Positions 10,623-57,955 are shown, counted from the stretch's first letter. The stretch is 64,000 bases of DNA from an uncultured Actinomycetota bacterium (GCA_963746465.1 CAVVAY010000013.1:188934-252933); one strand, 5' to 3'. Notes: generated by a model from the letters alone, not told the origin. Numbers and translations are program-made.

Positions 10623-14567
<3,945 letters not shown>

Positions 14568-48421: not shown

Positions 48422-48973
48422 ATGGACGTCACTCTTCCTGCGCCGTGGCTGGCCGGCGGCCAGCTGCCCATGGTCTGCGCGCGGCACGGCGGCCCGTCGA
48501 GCCACCGGGCAAAGCGCTCCATCCACACCAAGACGCCGAGCTGGGTCTTCCTGATCATGCTTTGCTCGCTGCTCATCGGGGCGATCGTCGCGCTGTCGAT
48601 CCGGAAGACCGTGAAGGGTCAGCTGTCCGCCTGCTCGCGGTGCACGACCGACCGACGACGCTTCCGCGCTGCGGTGGTCGCGGCCTGGGTGCTGTCCGCC
48701 GTCCTGCTCGGAGTCGTGGGTTCGTCGCCATCGGACTTCTGGGTGGTCCTGTGGACGCTGTTCGCCATCGGTGCGCTGACTTTCACGTTCTGCGGAGACC
48801 TGTTCCGGGTGCGCGGTCACCTTCGGCCCGACCTGGTCTGGGTGGACCTCAAAGGCGTGCACGAGGACTTCGCCCGACCGGTGATGGAGGCGCTGCGCCC
48901 GCCGGTCCCAGCCGGCGCCGCACCGGTGCTGGGAGCCAGCACCGGCGCGGTCAACGTGCTGCCAGGGGGCTGA
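48422..48973 (+). CDS. Uncharacterised membrane protein with CxxH and CxxC motifs
   Basis: LPMVCARHG, TM segment, ACSRC, two more TM segments, VDLKGVHEDFA. Confidence 0.7.
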   Translation: MDVTLPAPWLAGGQLPMVCARHGGPSSHRAKRSIHTKTPSWVFLIMLCSLLIGAIVALSIRKTVKGQLSACSRCTTDRRRFRAAVVAAWVLSAVLLGVVGSSPSDFWVVLWTLFAIGALTFTFCGDLFRVRGHLRPDLVWVDLKGVHEDFARPVMEALRPPVPAGAAPVLGASTGAVNVLPGG

Positions 48974-48975
48974 TT

Positions 48976-51000
48976 TCAGCGCCGGACGACGGTGAAGCCT
49001 CCCGCCACCACGCTGACCGGGACCTCGCCGGACGCCTTGCTGGTCGACGCACGCACCAGGCGGCCGCGACCGTCGTAGACCTCGATCCGGGCCGGACCAC
49101 TGCCCGGCACCGCGACCTTGGCCCGCTGGTCGGTGGTGGCAGCGCTGCGCAGCAAAGCGGTCCCGTGGCCGTCACCGCCGAGCACCAGCCGGGAGACCAG
49201 GGGCTCGACCATCAGCGCGTCCAGCCGAGCCTCGTCGCCGCCGGTGGCGGTGGTCGTGGCCGTCACCACCTGCTGGCCGGGGGGCAGCGTCACCGGCAGG
49301 GTCACCGGCAGCAGAGCGCCCGGGGCCGGTGAGTCGCCCTGCGGACCGATGTCGCCCGAGCGGACCGTGCCGAGCACGGTGTCCCCCGCCCGGAAGGTGG
49401 TGACTGCGGTGCTGCCGGGCTGCAGGTCCACGACGGCGATGACCAGCCGCTTCTCACCCTTGCCGACCGTCACCCGGGCGGAGCCGCCCGCCGGCAGCGC
49501 GACGTAGCGGCCGCCCTCGTACTGCGACTCCCCTGTCCAGGCGCTCGCCGGCGTGACCACGTGCGCGCCACCGGCCAGCGCCGCGCCCTCGACCGGGACC
49601 TCCCGGGTGCCCACCCGTTCCCGCACGCCGGCGGTCCGGGCGAGCTCGGCGACGTCCGGGTTCGCGTCCAGGGCGAGCATCGAGAGCAGCCCGTGGATGG
49701 TCGACTCGGCCCCCGCGTTGTGGTTCACGGAGCCGTCCGCCTGGATGCCGTCCACGGAACGGCCGGTCGTCGGGTCGTAGGCAGGCTGACCTGACGCGTT
49801 GGCGCCGAAGTACCAGGCCGCCATCACCCCCGCCAGTCGACGAAGCCCGGTCGAGCCGGTGACCTCGGCGGTGGCGAGCAGCGACTGCAGCCGCGAGTCG
49901 ACGCCGTAGGTGATCTGCGAGCGGTCCACCCGCGTCGGCAGCCGTCCGTTGTCCGGGCCGCCGGAGGTCAGCATCCACGGGTCGAAGACCGCGGAGTCCC
50001 GGGTGGCGACCGCGGCCAGCGACGCGTCGCCCAGCGCCACCGAGGCGCGAGCGAGCGCCGCGGGCATCTGCGAGCCCCAGCCGTGCCAGATGGAGCGCGA
50101 CAGCACCCACGGCCGGACGGCACCGAACGGCCAGCTGCGCGCGTCGCCGCCGCCGAGGGCAGCGATGCCGCTCGCCAGCTTGACCAGCGCGTCCCGGGCC
50201 GCGGGAGTCGCCGACCCGGTCCGGACGTAGGCCGAGAGGCCGAGCACCGCCTCTGCGCTGGCGTCGCCGCCGTCGGCGATCAGCCAGGCGGGAGACTGCT
50301 CGCCGTCGATGTTCCTGAACTGGCCGTAGCGTGCCAGCGGCTGTCGCTGCACTGCGCCGACACTGAGGTCCAGCCGGTCCTTGAGGAAGCCGGCGAACGC
50401 GGGGTCCGAGCCACGGAAGGCCGCGTAGCCCTCGCCGAGCGCCCAGACCGTGCGGGCCAGCCAGTAGGACTCGGCGCTGTCCGACGGATCGGGCTCCTCG
50501 TGAACCACCGGGCTCGGGTTCAGGGTGCCGTCGGTCTGCATCCAGAGCACGACGTTGCCGGCGTTGGGGCCGGACGAGGTCTGGAAGTAGGCCACCGCGC
50601 GCAGCAGGTCGAAGGCCTTCTGCCGACTGGTCGCGTCGCCGGTCTGCTGCCAGTGCCGCAGGTACACGACCGCGGCCCGGGTGACGTCGTCGGCGTTGAA
50701 GGCGCCCTGCCCCCAGTTGCCGTCGCCGTCGTCGTCACCGCCGCCACCGATCCGGTCGTAGTGCCCGTCGGCGCGCCGGTCGGCGTAGGTCCAGAGGACC
50801 CCCAGCGGCCGGTCCGGCTGGTAGGTCGTGTGGTTCGCCTGGGCCGGCGGGCTCACGGTGGTGCCGAGGAAGTCCAGGTGGGCGAAGTTGGTCAGAGGTA
50901 CGGCGGCGGACGCCGGCGACGTCGCCTGCCCCATCACCAGCACGGAGCAGACCAGGGCGAGCACGAGAGCGCCGATGGTGCGGCGCGGCGCGCGGGTCAC
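48976..51000 (-). CDS. Secreted putative glycoside hydrolase-like protein (helical catalytic domain plus C-terminal beta/CBM-like domain)
   Basis: Signal peptide ending SPASA, GAFNADDVTRAAVVY, SYWLARTVWALGE, WYFGAN, DGI..NHNAGAESTIHGLL. Last gene of the sugar operon. Confidence 0.65.
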   Translation of the reverse strand: MTRAPRRTIGALVLALVCSVLVMGQATSPASAAVPLTNFAHLDFLGTTVSPPAQANHTTYQPDRPLGVLWTYADRRADGHYDRIGGGGDDDGDGNWGQGAFNADDVTRAAVVYLRHWQQTGDATSRQKAFDLLRAVAYFQTSSGPNAGNVVLWMQTDGTLNPSPVVHEEPDPSDSAESYWLARTVWALGEGYAAFRGSDPAFAGFLKDRLDLSVGAVQRQPLARYGQFRNIDGEQSPAWLIADGGDASAEAVLGLSAYVRTGSATPAARDALVKLASGIAALGGGDARSWPFGAVRPWVLSRSIWHGWGSQMPAALARASVALGDASLAAVATRDSAVFDPWMLTSGGPDNGRLPTRVDRSQITYGVDSRLQSLLATAEVTGSTGLRRLAGVMAAWYFGANASGQPAYDPTTGRSVDGIQADGSVNHNAGAESTIHGLLSMLALDANPDVAELARTAGVRERVGTREVPVEGAALAGGAHVVTPASAWTGESQYEGGRYVALPAGGSARVTVGKGEKRLVIAVVDLQPGSTAVTTFRAGDTVLGTVRSGDIGPQGDSPAPGALLPVTLPVTLPPGQQVVTATTTATGGDEARLDALMVEPLVSRLVLGGDGHGTALLRSAATTDQRAKVAVPGSGPARIEVYDGRGRLVRASTSKASGEVPVSVVAGGFTVVRR

Positions 51001-51419
51001 GGCGCGCTCGTCCCGTTGCGGCCGTACCGGTCCTCGAGCCGGACGACGTCCTCACGCCAGCCCGGGGCGGCGGTGGATGCTTCGACGAACATCGAGTCCT
51101 CCAGTGCTCGAAGCCGGTGCAGCAGACCAGGCGGCACGTGCACCGACGTACCGACCGGCAACGGCACGGCGGTCAGGGCGTCGGCCGCGGTGCCGAGGTC
51201 GAGCTCGGCCCGGCCGGAGACCAGCGCGATCGTCTCGTCCTTGTCCTCGTGGTACTGCAGCGACAGCGACTCTCCCGCTCGCACGGTCAACAGCTTGCCG
51301 ACGTAGCCTCCCTCGACCACGGCAAAGATGTCCTCGTGGCCCCAGGGCTTGTCGACCCGCTGGACGGGTCGCGGTGCCGGGCTCTCGGTGGTCGCGGTGT
51401 GCTGACTGGTCTCGGTCAT
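50997..51419 (-). CDS. Cupin resembling the type II mannose-6-phosphate isomerase domain
   Basis: RVDKPWG, KLLTVRAGESLSLQYH..KDET, PPGLLHRL, EAST, DVVRLEDRYGR. Confidence 0.8.
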   Translation of the reverse strand: MTETSQHTATTESPAPRPVQRVDKPWGHEDIFAVVEGGYVGKLLTVRAGESLSLQYHEDKDETIALVSGRAELDLGTAADALTAVPLPVGTSVHVPPGLLHRLRALEDSMFVEASTAAPGWREDVVRLEDRYGRNGTSAP

Positions 51420-52636
51420 GCGGTCCTCATGTCGTCTCGTCGGTCGATGGTCGAAGTCGTCAGCTCGGGGTGGACGTGCCGTCCCTCGGCGGCGGACCGG
51501 CGCGCCGCGTCCGCGACGGCGACGGCGGCGAGTGCGTGGGCGGCGCCGGAGCGCGGGGGCGGTCCACCGGCCGCGGCGCTGAGCAGGTCCGCGGCCGCGG
51601 CCCGGACGCTCTCGGCGTACACCCGCTGCTTCGCGCCGTCGTCACCCAGCACCAGCTCGAGCACGACGCGGTGCGGCAGGTCGAGGTCGCGGCCCCGCCC
51701 GCAGGCCGACCGCGGCCCGGCATCGCGATGCACCACCGCGGTCACACCGCTCCCCGGGCCGAGCCGGTGCCCGGGGACGTGCAGCAGCCCATCTGCTCGG
51801 GCCGGCAGGCCGTACGCCGTCTCGGCACCGGCGTCGTCGGTCCACGCCTCCACCCGGGCCCGCAGCGGGATCCAGCCCTCGACCCGGACCTCGGCGGCGC
51901 CGTGGTCGAGGCGCAGGTGCTGACGTTCGCACCGGGTGGCGTGGGTGAAGCCGTGGGTGTGGGTCGCGAGTGCGCCACCTGCGTGCCGGGCGGTGGCGCT
52001 GACCAGGTCGGTGGTGCCGTCGGCGCGCTGCGTGGCGACGGCCGAGACGACATCCGGCGCGCTGCCGAGCAGCAGGTGCGCAGCGTCGAAGAAGTGGACG
52101 CCGTGCTCGACGAAGATGCCGCCGCTCACGGCCTCGTCCCAGAACCAGTGACCGGCCGGCAGGTTCTCGTCGCTGGCGTCGTTCTGGAAGCTGAAGACCT
52201 GCACCGGCCCGAGCAGCTCGTCCTGCAGCCGGACCAGCGCCTGCAGCAGCGGGTTGTAGCGCAGCACGTGGTCGACGACGAGCACCTGCCCGGACGCCTC
52301 CGCGGCCGCCGCCACGATCCGTGCGGTCGCGAGATCGGTGGCCAGCGGCTTCTCGCACAGGACGTGCCGGCCGGCGTCCAGCGCCGCAAGGGTGATCTCG
52401 GCGTGCCGGGCCGGCGGTGCCACCACCGCCACCACGTCGACCCGGTCGTCAGTGAGCAGGGCACGCCAGTCGCTGCTCGCCGTCGCGCCGTGCTGGGAGG
52501 CGAGGGTCTCCGCCCGGTCCCGGTCCGGGTCGGCCACCGCGCGCACCTCGAGGCCGGGGAGGTCGGCCACGGCGTCGGCCAGGAAGCCGGCGAACCGACC
52601 GGCTCCTGCAAGGCCGAGGCCGAGGGTGCGCGTCAC
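51416..52636 (-). CDS. Gfo/Idh/MocA family NAD(P)-dependent oxidoreductase
   Basis: GLAGAGRF, AGRHVLCEKPLA, DHVLRYNP, WFWD..SGGIFVEHGVHFFD. Confidence 0.88.
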   Translation of the reverse strand: MTRTLGLGLAGAGRFAGFLADAVADLPGLEVRAVADPDRDRAETLASQHGATASSDWRALLTDDRVDVVAVVAPPARHAEITLAALDAGRHVLCEKPLATDLATARIVAAAAEASGQVLVVDHVLRYNPLLQALVRLQDELLGPVQVFSFQNDASDENLPAGHWFWDEAVSGGIFVEHGVHFFDAAHLLLGSAPDVVSAVATQRADGTTDLVSATARHAGGALATHTHGFTHATRCERQHLRLDHGAAEVRVEGWIPLRARVEAWTDDAGAETAYGLPARADGLLHVPGHRLGPGSGVTAVVHRDAGPRSACGRGRDLDLPHRVVLELVLGDDGAKQRVYAESVRAAAADLLSAAAGGPPPRSGAAHALAAVAVADAARRSAAEGRHVHPELTTSTIDRRDDMRTA

Positions 52637-53703
52637 GTGTGGTCGAGCCTCGCCACGCCGATCTTGGAGTCGGCCATGCCGTAGAACACGAACCGCACCC
52701 CGTCGACCAGCTCGATCGCGGTCGGGAACACCACGTTCGGCACGGTGCCGGCCCGCTCGTCGTCGGTCTCCGGGGCGAGGATCGGCTCGGCCGTGCGGGA
52801 CAGGACCCGCGACGGGTCCTCGGGGTCCAGCAGCATCGCGCCGGCGGCGTACTCGACGCGCTGCGTGGTCGGGTCGAAGCCGACGGGCTGCTCGCCGGTG
52901 ACGCCGTGATGGATGAGCAGCCAGCCCTCGTCGACCCGCAGCGGAGGCGGCCCGGCACCGATCTTCAGCTGCTCGTAGGGGAACTCGGCCAACGCGACGC
53001 ACCGGTGGTCGCGCGGCCGGGCCAGCGCCCGGACGTCGGCCTGCGCCTCGTCGACCGGCACGTAGGAGATCCAGATGCCCGGCCGCTCGTCGGTGGTGCC
53101 GGCCGGCAGGTGCACGGTCTCGCCCTCACGGAACCAGCCCAGGTCCCACATCGGGCGGTGCAGCATGGCGTACGCCGGCCGGCCCTGCGGGTCCGGCACC
53201 GGCTCGGGGAAGAACACCGCGTCCTTGTTGGGGAACATGCACAGGTCGGTGTCGAGGTCGGGCTGGTAGGCGAACTGCACCGGCCCCAGCCGGCGCCAGT
53301 CGCGCAGGTCGGACGACACCGCGAGGGCGAGCCGAGGGCCGAGCGGACCGAACGCGACGTACGTCATGAGGTGCAGGCCGAGCGACGGCACCCAGGTGGT
53401 GCGGGGGTCCTCGACCCCGGCGTTGTGCGCGCCGCGTTCCCAGCCCTCGTCCGGGGCGAGGACCACGCCTCTGCGCTCGACGCCCACCGGCACGCCGTCC
53501 TCGATCAGCACCTCGGCGAGCCCGACCCTGGACACGTTGCCGGCGGCGACGATGCGCGGCAGCAGGTGCAGCCGGCCGTCCGGTGCGCGCCCGCTGGCCG
53601 GGTTGAGGACGCCGAGCTCCTCCAGCGGGTCGTCGGGCTGCGGCGACATGACGACGCCGAGCCGGGTCAGCGCGTAGGGGACGGTGGTCGTCTGGGCGGG
53701 CAC
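52633..53703 (-). CDS. GH130 family glycoside phosphorylase (beta-mannoside phosphorylase-like)
   Basis: GVLNPA, GVEDPR, PNKDAVFFP, MLHRP, KIGAGPPP, WLLIHHGV, LLDPEDP, PNVVFP, FYGMADS. Confidence 0.85.
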   Translation of the reverse strand: MPAQTTTVPYALTRLGVVMSPQPDDPLEELGVLNPASGRAPDGRLHLLPRIVAAGNVSRVGLAEVLIEDGVPVGVERRGVVLAPDEGWERGAHNAGVEDPRTTWVPSLGLHLMTYVAFGPLGPRLALAVSSDLRDWRRLGPVQFAYQPDLDTDLCMFPNKDAVFFPEPVPDPQGRPAYAMLHRPMWDLGWFREGETVHLPAGTTDERPGIWISYVPVDEAQADVRALARPRDHRCVALAEFPYEQLKIGAGPPPLRVDEGWLLIHHGVTGEQPVGFDPTTQRVEYAAGAMLLDPEDPSRVLSRTAEPILAPETDDERAGTVPNVVFPTAIELVDGVRFVFYGMADSKIGVARLDHT

Positions 53704-53705
53704 GA

Positions 53706-54629
53706 TCAGCCCTTCACGCCGGAGCCGAGCTCGGAGGAGGTGAAGTGCCGCTGGAAGGCGACGAACAACGCGACCGCGGGCGCGGCGAGCACGACGGCCC
53801 CCGCGAGGATCGCGCCGTAGGGGTTGCTGGCCCGTCCCGCGACGTTGGACAGGTAGTTCGCCAACGACACGGCCAGCGGCTGGAGGCTGTTGTCCTTGGT
53901 GATGAGGAAGGGCCACAAGAACTCGTTCCACGGCCCGATGAAGGTGAGCAGGACGGCGGTGAGAAGCGCGGGGCGCACCAGCGGCAGGGCGATCGACCAG
54001 AGGATGCGCATCTCGCCCGCGCCGTCGATCCTGGCGGCCGAGAACAGGTCCTCGGGCAGCTGCAGGAAGAACTGCCGGAAGATGAAGACGGCCGTCGAGT
54101 TGATGGCGAACGGCAGGATCATCCCGAGGTAGGTGTCGGCCAGCCCGTAGCTGCGCACGATCATCACGTACAGCGGGATCATCAGCAGCTGAAACGGCAC
54201 GAGCTGCACGAGCAGCATCGACGCGAACAACGCCCCGCGGCCACGGAAGTGCAGCACCGCCAGCGCGTAACCGGCAAGGACGCCGAAGACGATCGTCCCC
54301 AGGATGACGCCCCCGGTGAAGATGCCGGAGTTGAGCAGCGACTGGGCCAGGTCGACGCGTTCGTTGATCTGCTTGTAGTTGTCGAGGGTCCAGCCGCCGA
54401 TCGGGAAGGCGCCCCCGACGGACGTGTCGGACTTCGCCTGCAGCGACCCGACGAGCATGTAGTAGAAGGGAAAGAGGAACACCAACGCGCCCAGGGCGAG
54501 CAGGGCGAAGCGGGCCAGGTAGGGCAGGTCGAAGCGCCGGCGCTCCGGCACCGGCGTCACGGCGCGTGACGAGGTGCTGTCGTCGATCGTGGGCGGCGGG
54601 GTGAGGGCCGTCTGGGTTGGTTCACTCAT
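53706..54629 (-). CDS. Carbohydrate ABC transporter permease (MalG-like)
   Basis: FIFRQFFLQLPEDLFSAARIDGAG (EAA loop), WNEFLWP, FQRHF..G.KG. Confidence 0.92.
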   Translation of the reverse strand: MSEPTQTALTPPPTIDDSTSSRAVTPVPERRRFDLPYLARFALLALGALVFLFPFYYMLVGSLQAKSDTSVGGAFPIGGWTLDNYKQINERVDLAQSLLNSGIFTGGVILGTIVFGVLAGYALAVLHFRGRGALFASMLLVQLVPFQLLMIPLYVMIVRSYGLADTYLGMILPFAINSTAVFIFRQFFLQLPEDLFSAARIDGAGEMRILWSIALPLVRPALLTAVLLTFIGPWNEFLWPFLITKDNSLQPLAVSLANYLSNVAGRASNPYGAILAGAVVLAAPAVALFVAFQRHFTSSELGSGVKG

Positions 54630-54630
54630 G

Positions 54631-55557
54631 TCAGTCCCTCTCCAGGGCACGGCGGCTGAGCAGGGACAGGGCCAGCACGCCGATCACGAGGATCACGCCG
54701 ATGGCGGCGGCGACGTCAGGGTTCCCCTGCTCGATGCCCTTCTGGTACATCACCAGCACCGGTGACGCCGAGGCGCCGTCCGGGCCGCCTCCATTGGTGA
54801 GCAGGTACGGCTCGGTGAACAGGTTGGCGCCGGTGATGATCGCCAGGATGACCACCAGCGCGGTGGCCGGCCGGACGCCGGGAATGGTCACGTTGCGCAT
54901 CTGCTGCCAGCGGGTGGCTCCGTCGACGCTGGCCGACTCGTACAGCTCCTTGGGCACCGACTGCAGGGCAGCGAGGTAGAGCAGGATGTAGAAGCCCAGC
55001 CCCTTCCAGGTGACGAAGATCGCGATGAGCGGCATCGCCAGGGAGGAGTTGACCAGCCAGGACGGGTCCGGGGCGAGGCCGCCGAGCAGCTGGTTGACCA
55101 TGCCGTCCTTGGAGAACAGGAACAGCCAGACGGACACGACCGCGACGCTGGCGCTGATGTAGGGCACGTAGTAGCCGACCCGGAAGAAGGTCCGGCCCAC
55201 GATGGCCGCGTTGAGTGCGTTGGCCAGGATCATGGACAGCCCGACGGTCAACGGGACGTTGATGACCAGGAAGACGCCGACGTTGAAGAACGCGCGCCGG
55301 ACGTCCGGGTCGCTGAGGACCGTCGCATAGTTGTCGAAGCCGACGAACGGTCGCGGCACGCTGGCGCCCGGCGCGGCGAAGAAGTAGTCGTGGAAGCTCA
55401 TCCACACCGCCAGCCCGAGCGGGTAGGCGAACACGGCGGCAAGGAAGAGGGCGTAGGGCGCCGCGAACGCGATGCCCAGCGGCTGGCGACCGAGAACGGT
55501 CGCCAGCCGGCTGCGGCGAGGGCTGCCCGCAGACTGCGTGGGCTGTGCTGTCGTCAT
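54631..55557 (-). CDS. Carbohydrate ABC transporter permease (MalF-like)
   Basis: FVGFDNY, LAALQSVPKELYESASVDGA (EAA loop), FTEPYLLTNGGGP. Confidence 0.92.
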   Translation of the reverse strand: MTTAQPTQSAGSPRRSRLATVLGRQPLGIAFAAPYALFLAAVFAYPLGLAVWMSFHDYFFAAPGASVPRPFVGFDNYATVLSDPDVRRAFFNVGVFLVINVPLTVGLSMILANALNAAIVGRTFFRVGYYVPYISASVAVVSVWLFLFSKDGMVNQLLGGLAPDPSWLVNSSLAMPLIAIFVTWKGLGFYILLYLAALQSVPKELYESASVDGATRWQQMRNVTIPGVRPATALVVILAIITGANLFTEPYLLTNGGGPDGASASPVLVMYQKGIEQGNPDVAAAIGVILVIGVLALSLLSRRALERD

Positions 55558-55570
55558 GGCAGCGGACCGG

Positions 55571-56863
55571 TCAGGACTCGCCGGCGAGGCCGTCGACCTC
55601 GGTGGCAGCCTTCGACAGGAAGTCATCGACCGAGGTCTTCCCGAAGATCACCGCCGAGCTGTACTGGTCGCGGAACTTCTGCCAGACCTCGATGGAGTTG
55701 GGGACGTTGGGCACCTCGACGGTGCGGCTGGCGAACGAGGCGAAGTCCTTGTACTCAGGGTGGCTGGAGAAGTAGTCCGGGTACGCGGCCTCGAGGTCGC
55801 TGCGCAGCGGCATCTGTCCTGTCTTGTCCAGCAGCGCGCCGTCCTGCTCCTTGCTGGTGGCGAACTTCAGGACGCTCCAGGCGGTGCCCTTGGCCTTGCA
55901 GGCCGAGTAGATCGCGACGTTCTTCGCGTCGGAGAAGGTGTGGGTCTCCTCTGCAGTCATCCCCGCGGAGGTCGGGACCGGAGCGGCACCCCACTTCACC
56001 TTGTCGCCGTAGACCGCGATCGCCCACGGGCCGACGATCGACATGGCGGCCTTGCTGTCGGCGAACGAGTCGCCGTTGTACTTCTCCTTCTGCGCGTAGC
56101 CCTTCTCGTACATCGTCGCCCAGAAGTTCGCGACCGCCTTACCGGCGTCGTCGTTGAAGGTGGCCTTGCCGTCCTCGACCAGCTGCTTGCCGCCGGACTC
56201 GGCCGCGTAGAGGGGGTAGAAGTCGAACCAGGACTGGAAGAACTCGCTGCTCGGGGCCGGCCAGATCGCCGCCTGGGCCGCACCGCTGGACACGATCTTG
56301 TCGCTGGTGGCGAGGAACTCGTCGTACGTCGACAGCGGCGGGTTCTCCGGGTCGACGCCCGCCTTCTTCAGCACGTCCTTGTTGTAGAAGATCATCACCG
56401 GGTTCGACTTCCACGGCATCTGGTAGTACTTGCCGTCCGGTGACTTGTACTGCGCGGCGCTGTCACCGGTGCGCGACTCGATGTAGTCCTTGCCGCCGGG
56501 GAAGTCGTCCAGCGGCACCAGTCCGCCCTGCTTCTGGAAGCCAGGCACGGCGGCGGGAGCGGTGTTGAACACCAGGCAGGGGGCGTTGCCGGCGGTGATC
56601 GCCGCGCCGATGACCTCCTCGGAGGTCTTGCCGGCGGGGATCTCCTGGGCGGTGACCTTCTCCTTGGGGTTCTTGGTGTTCCAGGCCGCCACCATCTCCT
56701 TGCCCCAGGCGAGCTCCTCGGGGTTGTTCGACAGCCAGATCTTGATCGCGCCCTTGGTGGCGAGCTCGCCACCGGAGGAGGAGCCACCGCCGTCATCGCC
56801 CCCGCAGGCAGAGGCGCCGAGAGCCAGGGCGAGTAGGACGGCTGCGCTAGCGGTGCGGTTCAT
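55571..56863 (-). CDS. Sugar ABC transporter substrate-binding lipoprotein
   Basis: Lipobox ASACGG, DGKYYQMPW, FYNKDVLKKAG, AAMSIVGPW. TGATG overlap with the lacI-family stop. Confidence 0.92.
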   Translation of the reverse strand: MNRTASAAVLLALALGASACGGDDGGGSSSGGELATKGAIKIWLSNNPEELAWGKEMVAAWNTKNPKEKVTAQEIPAGKTSEEVIGAAITAGNAPCLVFNTAPAAVPGFQKQGGLVPLDDFPGGKDYIESRTGDSAAQYKSPDGKYYQMPWKSNPVMIFYNKDVLKKAGVDPENPPLSTYDEFLATSDKIVSSGAAQAAIWPAPSSEFFQSWFDFYPLYAAESGGKQLVEDGKATFNDDAGKAVANFWATMYEKGYAQKEKYNGDSFADSKAAMSIVGPWAIAVYGDKVKWGAAPVPTSAGMTAEETHTFSDAKNVAIYSACKAKGTAWSVLKFATSKEQDGALLDKTGQMPLRSDLEAAYPDYFSSHPEYKDFASFASRTVEVPNVPNSIEVWQKFRDQYSSAVIFGKTSVDDFLSKAATEVDGLAGES

Positions 56864-57918
56864 CAGTTCTCCGTTTCGGGGACATGCGGTGACGGGGACG
56901 TGCGGGGTGGTGCGGTGGAGGCTCGTATCACGAGGTGCGGCGGGGACAGTCCGACGTTGGTGGTGTCGCGCCCGTCGATGAGGGCCATCAGCTGCACAGC
57001 CGCGGCCTGGCCCCAGGCGTAGGCATCGGTGCGGACGGTGGTCAGGGCCGGCTGCAGGTGCGCGGTGACCTCGGTGTCGTCGAAGCCGGTGATGGACAGG
57101 TCGCCGGGGACGTCGAGCCCACGGGCCGCGGCCGCGGCCATGCCCGCGATGGCCATCAGGTCGTTGGCGTAGACGATCGCGGTGGGCGGGTCCGGCCGGT
57201 CGAGCAGCGCCTTGGTGGCCTCGGCGCCGCCCTGGGCCGAGAAGTCGGAGACGACGCAGGGGCCCTCGGGCAGGCCGGCGGCGACCAGCGCCCCGGCCCA
57301 GGCCTCGCGCCGCGAGGCGCCGTGCACGAACTCGTCCGGTCCGGCCACGTGGGCGATGTTGCGATGGCCGAGCTCCACCAGGTGCGCGACGGCCGCCGCG
57401 ATGCCCGGCCGGTCGTCGACGGCCACGCACGGCAGGCTGCTGCCGACGCAGTCCGGGCCGATCCAGACCGCGGGCAGGCCGGCCTCGGCGAGCAGCGCGG
57501 GGCGGGGGTCGTCGACCCGCAGGTCGGTGAGGAAGACACCGTCGACCCGGCCGTCGGCGGCCAGGCGGCGATACCCCGCCAGCTCGCGCTCGCGGTCCGG
57601 CACGACCTGCAGCAGCAGCGACTGCCCCAGCGGGGCCAGTGCCGACTCGATCCCGGCGATGAACCCGGGAAAGAACGGGTCGGCGCCGAGGGTCTCCGGC
57701 GGGCGGGCGATGACCAGGCCGACCGCCAGCGCCCGGGAGGCCGCCAGCGCGCGGGCCCGGTGGCTGGGCGTCCAGCCCAGGTCGCGGGCCGCGGCCAGGA
57801 TCCGGTCCCGGGTCTCCGGCGCGACCCCAGGCCGGTCGTTGAGCGCGAAGGACACCGCACCCTTCGAGACGCCCGCCTTGCGGGCGACGTCGGAGATGGT
57901 GGGGCGACGCGAGGTCAT
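56863..57918 (-). CDS. LacI family transcriptional regulator
   Basis: PTISDVARKAGVSKGAVSFALN, HLVELGHRNIA, PTAIVYANDLMAIA, VPGDLSITGFDD, LTTV. Confidence 0.95.
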   Translation of the reverse strand: MTSRRPTISDVARKAGVSKGAVSFALNDRPGVAPETRDRILAAARDLGWTPSHRARALAASRALAVGLVIARPPETLGADPFFPGFIAGIESALAPLGQSLLLQVVPDRERELAGYRRLAADGRVDGVFLTDLRVDDPRPALLAEAGLPAVWIGPDCVGSSLPCVAVDDRPGIAAAVAHLVELGHRNIAHVAGPDEFVHGASRREAWAGALVAAGLPEGPCVVSDFSAQGGAEATKALLDRPDPPTAIVYANDLMAIAGMAAAAARGLDVPGDLSITGFDDTEVTAHLQPALTTVRTDAYAWGQAAAVQLMALIDGRDTTNVGLSPPHLVIRASTAPPRTSPSPHVPETEN

Positions 57919-57927
57919 TGGGTCTAA

Positions 57928-57955
57928 TAAAGCGGTTTAGTTACCGGGATGTCAA
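57928..57955 (-). promoter_or_regulatory. Sugar operon promoter: TTGACA -35 with a LacI-type operator TAAACCGCTTTA
   Basis: AT-rich island. The minus strand reads TTGACA-tcccggtaac-TAAACCGCTTTA-ttagaccca-ATG, a quasi-palindrome with central CG. Confidence 0.65.

Follow-up and report, generated by a model that had tools for sequence, protein, structure and literature searches.

A LacI-type operon linking a GH130 enzyme to an unannotated secreted protein family in Actinomycetota: a predicted system for scavenging beta-1,2-linked manno-oligosaccharides

A 64,000-nt stretch of DNA from an uncultured Actinomycetota bacterium (GCA_963746465.1, CAVVAY010000013.1:188934-252933), the whole of which is hereafter called the window, contains a sugar operon at positions 48,976 to 57,955. 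The eight genes of the operon encode, in order, a LacI-type repressor, a solute-binding lipoprotein, two ATP-binding cassette (ABC) permeases, a glycoside hydrolase (GH) family 130 protein (GH130W), a Gfo/Idh/MocA oxidoreductase (Gfo), a small cupin, and a secreted protein (P8). We propose, with a probability of roughly 0.55, that the operon is repressed by LacI, is probably transcribed as a leaderless mRNA, and serves the scavenging of beta-linked, most likely beta-1,2-linked, manno-oligosaccharides. Exported P8 would trim or cut an extracellular mannose-containing glycan into oligosaccharides, which would be imported by the lipoprotein binding protein and the two permeases, energised by a MalK/MsiK-type ATPase encoded elsewhere. 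In the cytoplasm, GH130W would use phosphate to convert the oligosaccharides into alpha-mannose-1-phosphate and mannose. The cupin (mannose or mannose-6-phosphate isomerase-like) and Gfo would be optional and would process the released hexose or the reducing end. LacI would act on a 14-bp palindrome over the -10 region and would presumably be released by the imported sugar.

The association of P8 with GH130 was evaluated at the level of the locus and of the genome. A search with P8 against one genome per prokaryote species yielded 80 loci, all in Actinomycetota. The hosts include Nocardioides, Micromonospora, Actinoplanes, Arthrobacter, Pseudarthrobacter, Microbacterium, Agromyces, Cryobacterium, and many metagenome-assembled genomes (MAGs). 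Among the carriers are cultured strains, for example Arthrobacter sp. FW306-04-A (L050), Micromonospora carbonacea DSM 43168 (L026), and Nocardioides jiangsuensis (L013). The loci were classified by tblastn with the window proteins and three locus proteins. The architecture GH130-P8, with a GH130 of the window type, was found in 39 of the 80 loci, one of which (L040) is from a genome flagged unpublished. The arrangement of the window, GH130-Gfo-cupin-P8, was found in seven loci plus one with a broken P8 match, GH130-Gfo-P8 in five, and GH130-cupin-P8 in three plus two partial ones. P8 comes before or after a different, BT3780-like GH130 and an AGE-family gene in 15 loci (Gfo is also present in one, and one is truncated at a contig end), and it stands alone in eight, four of which are cut by contig ends. 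Altogether, a GH130 gene lies beside P8 in 71 of the 80 loci (56 window-type and 15 BT3780-like), and nearly all of these 71 also have a lacI gene and a transporter. All five P8-only genomes tested (four with full flanks and one contig-cut) carry a window-type GH130 elsewhere, with scores of about 650 bits. Gfo and the cupin are present in 14 and 13 of the 80 loci, respectively. The conserved core is six genes, not eight: the regulator, the transporter, GH130, and P8.

For the genome-level test, an even sample of 401 genomes from the window's class was used. P8 was detected in 32 genomes, window-type GH130 (profile A2) in 30, and both in 26; omission of the double-positive genome G343, which is flagged unpublished, gives 31, 29, and 25 of 400. 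BT3780-like GH130 (profile A5, E ≤1e-60) was detected in four of the 401 genomes, all of which are P8-positive, are without the window type, and carry the gene adjoining P8. One or the other GH130 type is present in 30 of the 32 P8 genomes, and the remaining two genomes are 68% and 69% complete. Within the window's family, the identical 12 of 22 sampled genomes hold both P8 and GH130. Relatives are not independent in these counts, and no statistic is given. The joint presence and absence of P8 and GH130, together with the exact swap of GH130 types, is hard to explain without a functional link. An earlier model-generated reading of the sequence (the first-pass annotation) had described an eight-gene pathway and had named non-conservation of the gene set as evidence against it. 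The genes are co-conserved in loci and in genomes and the locus is genuine, but the eight genes are not a fixed unit; judged from gap sizes and matches, Gfo plus cupin, Gfo only, cupin only, and neither all occur even in the window's family.

GH130W matched PF04041 with 105 bits (cut-off, 26) and is the sole GH130 protein encoded in the genome. Its nearest structures by profile are 7FIP (Teth514_1789, 127 bits) and 9FJ8 (Teth514_1788, 114 bits), which are the beta-1,2-mannobiose and 1,2-beta-oligomannan phosphorylases of Thermoanaerobacter. As relatives of GH130W, the Thermoanaerobacter enzymes outrank BT3780-type hydrolases and far outrank beta-1,4 enzymes. The scores against the NCBIfam models were below the cut-offs, with 119 versus 450 bits for the beta-1,2-mannobiose phosphorylase model NF052550 and 90 versus 550 bits for NF058598 (BT3780 mannosidase). 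Since no NCBIfam equivalog cut-off was reached, GH130W is placed on a separate branch of the family.

The key residues of GH130W are N34, E98-D99, K160, R183, H266, and D345. In Chiku et al. (PMC4264767), the mannose -1 subsite is assigned to N28, D92, and D281 of Teth514_1788, equivalent to N73, D131, and D344 of BfMGP. N34, D99, and D345 of GH130W are the corresponding -1 subsite residues and are invariant in 22 orthologues. For the linkage, Cuskin et al. (PMC4599007) name K199 of BT3780 as the determinant of beta-1,2 specificity, along with a Glu, rather than a Tyr, before the catalytic Asp. Li et al. (PMC7660257) give the rule that an E/K pair denotes beta-1,2, E/R beta-1,3, and Y/R beta-1,4 specificity. 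GH130W has the E/K pair, formed by E98-D99 and K160 (PNKDAVFFPEP) and invariant, and the spacing of K160 is the same as in PNKDASLFPE of Teth514_1788 and K-x5-T-E of BT3780. BT3780-type hydrolases have two catalytic-base glutamates, E227 and E268; in the SEQRES numbering of 5A7V, the pair lies four residues later, in YWGEEH and LTECGPP. The equivalent positions of GH130W are occupied by R183 (LHRP) and KIGAGPP and are phosphorylase-like. In the alignment, R183 of LHRP stands against the Glu of YWGEEH/YFGEGS, and KIGAGPP against LTECGPP/LVEVGPQ. HHGV is found at the YNGK position of BT3780. No signal peptide was seen at the N-terminus of GH130W. The enzyme is predicted to be a cytoplasmic beta-1,2-mannoside phosphorylase because of the -1 subsite residues, the E/K pair, the Arg in place of the hydrolase Glu, and the lack of a signal peptide. 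A third protein, GH130/GH43-like and very divergent, with a length of about 360 aa, is encoded after P8 in 13 Arthrobacter-type loci, among them L050 (positions 11962-13044). It matches PF04041 with 46 bits, has EDPK for EDPR, and is without the C-terminal motifs.

The 15 loci with the BT3780-like GH130, here called sister loci, are from Nocardioides and related MAGs. In these loci, the transporter genes are followed by P8, a 324-aa GH130, and an AGE-fold protein. The sister GH130 is closest to BT3780 (NF058598, 229 bits; 5A7V, E 2e-56). It has no signal peptide, and across 14 sequences both glutamates, the Lys, and the Glu-Asp show no variation. The AGE-fold protein scored 500 bits against the D-mannose isomerase model NF051846 (cut-off, 600) and only 35 bits against cellobiose 2-epimerase. 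The obvious reading of these assignments is that the sister pathway would hydrolyse the substrate to mannose and then isomerise mannose to fructose. The binding proteins of the sister loci are 66-78% identical to that of the window. Since the regulator, operator, transporter, and P8 are common to both architectures, the imported sugar is probably the same. The sister loci are the strongest indirect evidence that plain mannose would be released from a beta-1,2-type mannoside.

Gfo matched PF01408 (89 bits) and PF22725/PF02894. E95-K96-P97 is invariant, and E177..H181 is present. The best solved relatives are 3C1A and glucose-fructose oxidoreductase, and no named equivalog was reached. In the cupin, Q55, H57, E62, and H101 are invariant in the alignment; these four residues may correspond to the metal-ligand set of mannose-6-phosphate isomerase (PMI). 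Against the equivalog for the bifunctional mannose-1-phosphate guanylyltransferase/PMI (GMP/PMI), the cupin scored 34 bits (cut-off, 373). Judged from their motifs, Gfo and the cupin look catalytically intact. Gfo orthologues were found in 11 of the 401 class genomes, and all 11 are next to window-type GH130 and/or P8. Cupin orthologues were found in seven of 39 family genomes, and all seven are inside the locus. Hence, Gfo and the cupin are variable accessory genes, yet they are dedicated to the locus and are not passengers. In a genome without P8 (G361:C17:63594-65830), a window-type GH130 gene is directly followed by a Gfo orthologue, so the GH130-Gfo pair can exist without P8. Our best guess is that Gfo and the cupin would process the free hexose after phosphorolysis, with the cupin in the role of the sister AGE isomerase.

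Neither a type I PMI (PF20511) nor an AGE-family gene is present in the genome of the window (3.57 Mb, 92.6% complete), where the operon cupin is the sole PF01050 match. Complementarity between the cupin and PF20511 was considered as a sign that the cupin is the PMI of the genome. Among 35 locus genomes, the PF20511 cut-off was reached in none of the 13 cupin-bearing genomes, and in all eight Micrococcales/Micromonosporales-type genomes without the cupin (seven of seven if the unpublished G025 is omitted). The pattern follows phylogeny and was not counted as support. It is broken by the cupin-less genomes G014, G015, G016, G018, G034, and G035, which are also without PF20511, and it is weakened by strong stand-alone PF01050 cupins elsewhere in some genomes. 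PF20511 was over the cut-off in Arthrobacter, Microbacterium, and Micromonospora carriers, and not in the window genome, the 13 cupin-bearing genomes, or six other relatives. PF01238 is a poor probe for PMI, as the control missed Corynebacterium. In Nocardioides jiangsuensis (L013:2146-2550, minus strand), lacI has a 134-aa stand-alone cupin (PF01050, 121 bits) about 3 kb upstream of it, encoded on the other strand. Small cupins of the PMI type with similarly strong matches are found elsewhere in G010, G013, and G033.

An operon of the same layout could instead serve another beta-mannoside, either beta-1,3- or beta-1,4-linked or with mannose on inositol, a uronic acid, or a ketose, and Gfo and the cupin would then process an unusual aglycone. 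GH130 enzymes span several linkages and acceptors (PMC8950772; PMC7660257), and GH130W is far from every characterised enzyme. The best NCBIfam relatives of Gfo are inositol dehydrogenases (106 bits), though far under the cut-off, and the dedication of Gfo to the locus suggests a pathway-specific substrate. We regard such a substrate as unlikely: the E/K pair is that of beta-1,2 enzymes, as are all the closest structures, 39 of the 80 loci run on GH130 and P8 without the accessory genes, and in the sister type a mannose isomerase accompanies a beta-1,2-mannosidase-like enzyme, so the common product looks like plain mannose. The first-pass annotation had suggested a modified or unusual glycan. 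The beta-1,2 signature and the mannose isomerase of the sister loci point to ordinary mannose release from a beta-1,2-linked manno-oligosaccharide, rather than necessarily to a modified glycan.

P8 carries a putative signal peptide at about residues 1-32, read from the sequence without a predictor, with a positive n-region containing RR, a hydrophobic core, and ASA|AV. Comparable signals were seen in 14 of 14 orthologues inspected. In the AlphaFold model of P8 (predicted local distance difference test [pLDDT] 87.9, predicted TM [pTM] 0.89), residues from about 34 to 455 form an (alpha/alpha)6 barrel, and beta-sandwiches come after it. When modelled alone (pLDDT 89.7), the C-terminal part has two beta-sandwich domains at about 459-674, the first of which is CBM6-like. 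The compact fold matches of this part are CBM6 modules (TM on target, 0.63-0.67), and the others are accessory domains of glycosidases. The only close relative of the barrel in both sequence and structure is 7TEM (YPO2471). The phmmer match covers residues 99-457 (E 6e-30), the Foldseek E-value is 1e-22, and the structural alignment gives Z 47.6 and a root-mean-square deviation of 2.1 over 386 residues, with 25-26% identity. Cellobiose 2-epimerases and mannose isomerase rank next by fold, at Z 28-30; GH76 alpha-mannanases follow at Z 25-27, along with many other (alpha/alpha)6 enzymes. On the model, the likeness of P8 to epimerases, isomerases, and GH76 is at the fold level only. D104-D105 (FNADD), W305-H306, and GAESTIH (E432, H436) are invariant in 37 family members and in 7TEM. 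D104, D105, and E432 are candidate catalytic residues, and such an acidic cluster would suit a glycosidase. A predicted secreted protein with an (alpha/alpha)6 barrel and CBM6-like modules has the usual build of an extracellular glycanase, and P8 may represent a new glycanase family.

The P8 family is large. More than 2,891 proteins were found at E ≤1e-3 in the 90% collection, and all listed names are "hypothetical protein". At 50% identity, there are 994 representatives at E ≤1e-3 and 249 at E ≤1e-30. The distant members are from Planifilum, Symbiobacterium, Deinococcus, and Micrococcaceae and are labelled hypothetical, except for a single "sugar-binding protein" and a single C5-epimerase-domain label. 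When 20 distant representatives were scanned, four had CBM9-like domains and one had CWB2 domains; in other phyla, then, the family is modular and associated with surfaces or glycans. The relatives with CWB2 or CBM9-like domains are P0130 (CWB2 repeats), P0214, P0235, P0245, and P0256. The Atlas neighbours of P8 fall into unnamed clusters of their own, with weak leads to C5-epim_C, GH76, and GH88. The first-pass annotation had left the secreted enzyme unassigned. It has no Pfam or NCBIfam family, but it does belong to the family of 7TEM, of which the structure is solved and the function is not recorded. In one protein, P0241 (1092 aa), a GH130 match close to the N-terminus is combined with a P8-like stretch at 534-815; it is either a natural fusion or the product of a sequencing or gene-calling mistake that joined neighbouring genes.

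The fold matches also raise the alternative that P8 does not produce the imported sugar. P8 would then be an exported epimerase- or isomerase-like, lyase-like, or envelope-remodelling enzyme of an AGE/GH76-like fold, with an indirect link to GH130. After 7TEM, the cellobiose 2-epimerases and mannose isomerase do outrank GH76. A C5-epimerase C-terminal domain label is attached to one distant homologue, another has CWB2 repeats, C5-epim_C is among the Atlas leads, and P8 is apart from the transporter in some Cryobacterium genomes. Nevertheless, we consider this alternative quite unlikely. In an hhalign profile-profile comparison with the AGE mannose isomerase family encoded in the sister loci, P8 showed no similarity (probability 0.2); the fold held in common with the AGE superfamily scores Z 26-30. 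P8 is secreted by prediction and has CBM6-like modules (CBM9-like in relatives), its conserved acidic residues D104, D105, and E432 are common to 7TEM and typical of glycosidases, and 71 of the 80 loci couple it to GH130 and an oligosaccharide importer.

The importer is of the CUT1 type, consisting of an SBP_bac_1 binding protein and two BPD_transp_1 permeases. The signal of the binding protein ends with ...GASAC, followed by a Gly/Ser/Asp linker, and is read as a lipobox. Across loci of all architectures, the binding protein keeps 59-93% identity, and Lmo0859 of Listeria is the best relative with a solved structure (4GQO, E 1.5e-31; next match, 1e-17). Lmo0859-0861 belong to the lmo0858-0865 sugar ABC cluster, by which maltose is not transported and to which no substrate is assigned (PMC2860498). 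The first-pass annotation expected a borrowed ATPase; no ATPase gene is present in the operon, and three OB_MalK domain matches are found elsewhere in the genome.

On the minus strand, the region upstream of lacI reads TTGACA, 9 nt, CTAAACCGCTTTAT, 8 nt, ATG. The -10 region is poor (TTTATT), with an 18-nt spacer after TTGACA. As only about 7 nt are left between the -10 region and the ATG, a leaderless lacI mRNA is probable. For the window and 58 related loci (59 regions), a comparison was made of the 110 nt upstream of lacI. A site within two mismatches of the family palindrome CTAAACCGGTTTAG was found in 57 of the 59 regions: 16 sites are perfect, 28 have one mismatch, and 13 have two. The two regions without such a site are those of L040 and L072. 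The chance expectation in the same loci is 0.007 per 110 nt, and the window has exactly one match in 64 kb. Given this conservation, which is far above chance, the "operator-like palindrome" noted earlier is a conserved, predicted LacI-family operator, and the TTGACA box noted with it is likewise real. In 22 of the 59 regions, TTGAC precedes the lacI start by 35-38 nt, with the operator over the -10 region; by this spacing, the mRNA must be nearly leaderless there. In Arthrobacter and Microbacterium loci, two tandem operators and a longer leader are present. LacI itself has HTH_LacI and a periplasmic-binding-protein fold and, with the 14-bp palindrome with a central CG, conforms to the LacI/GalR type at the sequence level. 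It is 51-94% identical across related loci, and lacI is predicted to be autoregulated.

That the locus is instead anabolic or recycling, with GH130W working in reverse or as a weak GDP-mannose transferase that builds beta-1,2-mannan and with P8 acting on the cell's own polymer, is very improbable: reverse phosphorolysis and a weak glycosyltransferase activity are seen in every beta-1,2 GH130 phosphorylase tested (PMC12814180) and the Thermoanaerobacter cluster has been proposed to feed GDP-mannose synthesis (PMC4264767), but the combination of a LacI repressor with an uptake-type binding-protein transporter and a secreted enzyme is catabolic in layout, the locus has no glycosyltransferase or GDP-mannose gene, and the sister loci use a hydrolase-type GH130.

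Several results weigh against the proposed scavenging of beta-1,2-linked manno-oligosaccharides. GH130W is only about 30% identical to characterised enzymes and has a central insertion of about 50 residues, and its middle part is poorly aligned. The R183 assignment depends on motif spacing and MAFFT because the insertion region aligns poorly. The E/K rule for the linkage was drawn mostly from gut enzymes. P8 matched no Pfam or NCBIfam glycoside hydrolase family at E ≤0.01. A hydrolytic role of P8 is suggested only by architecture and context, since P8 has no sequence relation to glycoside hydrolases and its nearest folds include epimerases and isomerases. Window-type GH130 occurs without P8 in four class genomes, namely G187 (weak, 328 bits), G328, G351, and G361. 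The cupin distantly resembles the type II PMI domain, in keeping with its earlier description (PF01050, 32 bits versus a cut-off of 23.6; PF07883 [Cupin_2], 29.5 bits), but the score is marginal, and no solved relative was found by single-sequence or profile search. A strict sigma-70 consensus scan of the region called no promoter because the -10 is weak. No abundant source of beta-1,2-mannan in soil is known to us.

The features of the operon are listed in Table 1. Start codons of the eight open reading frames (ORFs) were chosen with GC3 guidance. The gene models agree with the first-pass annotation on eight minus-strand genes with junctions of 13 nt or less; in gene order, the junctions are a 1-nt overlap, gaps of 13, 1, and 2 nt, and three 4-nt overlaps. 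Seven family assignments were confirmed by Pfam and NCBIfam profile searches, and the eighth protein, P8, is without a match.

Table 1. Predicted features of the operon, with positions counted from the first letter of the window
Feature	Position	Strand	Remarks
-35 hexamer TTGACA	57955-57950	-	Sequence reading
Putative LacI-family operator CTAAACCGCTTTAT	57940-57927	.	2 mismatches from family palindrome CTAAACCGGTTTAG; overlaps -10 region
lacI repressor	57918-56863	-	351 aa; PF00356 + PF13377; first gene
Solute-binding lipoprotein (CUT1-type)	56863-55571	-	430 aa; PF01547
ABC permease 1 (MalF/UgpA type)	55557-54631	-	308 aa; PF00528 + NCBIfam
ABC permease 2 (MalG/UgpE type)	54629-53706	-	307 aa; PF00528 + NCBIfam
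GH130, predicted cytoplasmic (GH130W)	53703-52633	-	356 aa; PF04041
Gfo/Idh/MocA NAD(P) oxidoreductase	52636-51416	-	406 aa; PF01408 + PF22725/PF02894
Small cupin	51419-50997	-	140 aa; PF01050 + PF07883
Predicted secreted protein P8	51000-48976	-	674 aa; no Pfam or NCBIfam match

The window is of high-GC actinobacterial DNA, with a G+C content of 0.67-0.77. The content falls to 0.67 over the binding-protein and permease genes (54000-57000) and is 0.73-0.77 on either side. Both flanks of the operon are housekeeping genes, with proS, a HAD hydrolase gene, and a TauE gene upstream, and an APH(6)-like kinase gene, DUF4439, and rimP-nusA-infB downstream. A convergent plus-strand ORF (48422-48973, 183 aa) ends 2 nt from the P8 stop codon, so the operon ends with P8 in this genome. 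This ORF has hydrophobic segments and no Pfam match, and a stretch of about 640 nt around it is absent in close relatives. In the close relatives L001, L004, and L067, the APH(6)-like kinase gene lies about 10-20 nt after P8. The kinase gene was considered as a ninth operon gene and was rejected, as the convergent ORF lies between it and P8 in the window; moreover, the kinase, HAD, and TauE genes are conserved flanks only inside the window's family.

The layout, with a repressor, a CUT1 importer without its own ATPase, and a cytoplasmic GH130, is a known kind of GH130-centred mannoside utilisation. Closest to it among known systems are the beta-1,2 cluster of Thermoanaerobacter and the epimerase/phosphorylase route that handles beta-1,4-mannobiose. 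The latter route, in Bacteroides fragilis, Ruminococcus albus, and Cellvibrio, reportedly combines import of the beta-mannoside, an AGE-fold mannobiose 2-epimerase, and a GH130 mannosylglucose phosphorylase that yields mannose-1-phosphate. It differs in being beta-1,4-specific (Y/R pair); the window genome has no AGE-family gene, and the sister AGE protein scores as a mannose isomerase. In Listeria, Lmo0859 of the lmo0858-lmo0865 cluster is by far the best solved relative of the window binding protein. The beta-1,2-mannobiose phosphorylase Lin0857 presumably belongs to the orthologous cluster of L. innocua. The cluster of Thermoanaerobacter sp. X-514 (Teth514_1785-1796, with the GH130_6 proteins Teth514_1788/1789) likewise combines an ABC importer with cytoplasmic beta-1,2 GH130 enzymes (PMC4264767), and these enzymes share the E/K pair and the PNKDA and LHR motifs with GH130W. 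Unlike the operon of the window, it has its own ATPases, GH5, mannose-1-phosphate guanylyltransferase, GT4, and two GH130 proteins. It is without a P8-like protein, Gfo, or cupin, and GH130W has an extra insertion and is about 30% identical over the aligned C-terminal part. The yeast-mannan loci of Bacteroides with BT3780 (PMC4599007) likewise have a beta-1,2 GH130 and (alpha/alpha)6 enzymes (GH76), and a BT3780-like GH130 with both catalytic-base glutamates occurs in the Nocardioides-type sister loci. BT3780 is secreted and works with many alpha-mannosidases, whereas the GH130 proteins of the window and sister loci have no signal peptide and no alpha-mannosidase is encoded in the locus. GH130W also has Arg where BT3780 has Glu, which would mark a phosphorylase. 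For P8, the structural-genomics entry 7TEM, the putative exported protein YPO2471 of Yersinia pestis, is likewise exported and has the DD and GAESTI motifs. It has about 405-427 residues, is without the C-terminal beta-sandwich domains, and has no function recorded; no functional literature on YPO2471/7TEM was found.

The operon is distinctive in the tight coupling of its secreted enzyme, which is from an uncharacterised family, in its divergent GH130 branch, in its two dedicated accessory enzymes, and in the interchange of phosphorylase-type and hydrolase-plus-isomerase modules. The overall logic of the first-pass annotation, from secreted enzyme through ABC import to mannoside cleavage by GH130, fits these results. 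Its suggestion of an undescribed pathway agrees with the literature searched, in which the gene set matches no characterised pathway, which omits most subscription journals and in which no paper on the locus, the P8 family, or a bacterial endo-beta-1,2-mannanase was found.

The GH130 enzymes of beta-1,2-mannoside breakdown have been well characterised in vitro, and the natural supply of their substrate is unclear. We tentatively suggest that P8 might found a new GH family and be the missing extracellular endo-enzyme for beta-1,2-mannan or beta-1,2-mannoside-capped glycans, feeding the GH130 phosphorylases and mannosidases of soil Actinomycetota, and that Gfo and the cupin might form a new side route for mannose. 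The operator motif can be used for regulon prediction, and the locus also supplies a pair of accessory enzymes dedicated to it. Through this locus, the secreted (alpha/alpha)6 proteins of a large family without annotation are connected with GH130 enzymes in many actinobacterial orders. The P8 family, which comprises 994 clusters at 50% identity, has a single orphan crystal structure, and is absent from Pfam, thereby gains a concrete, testable function.

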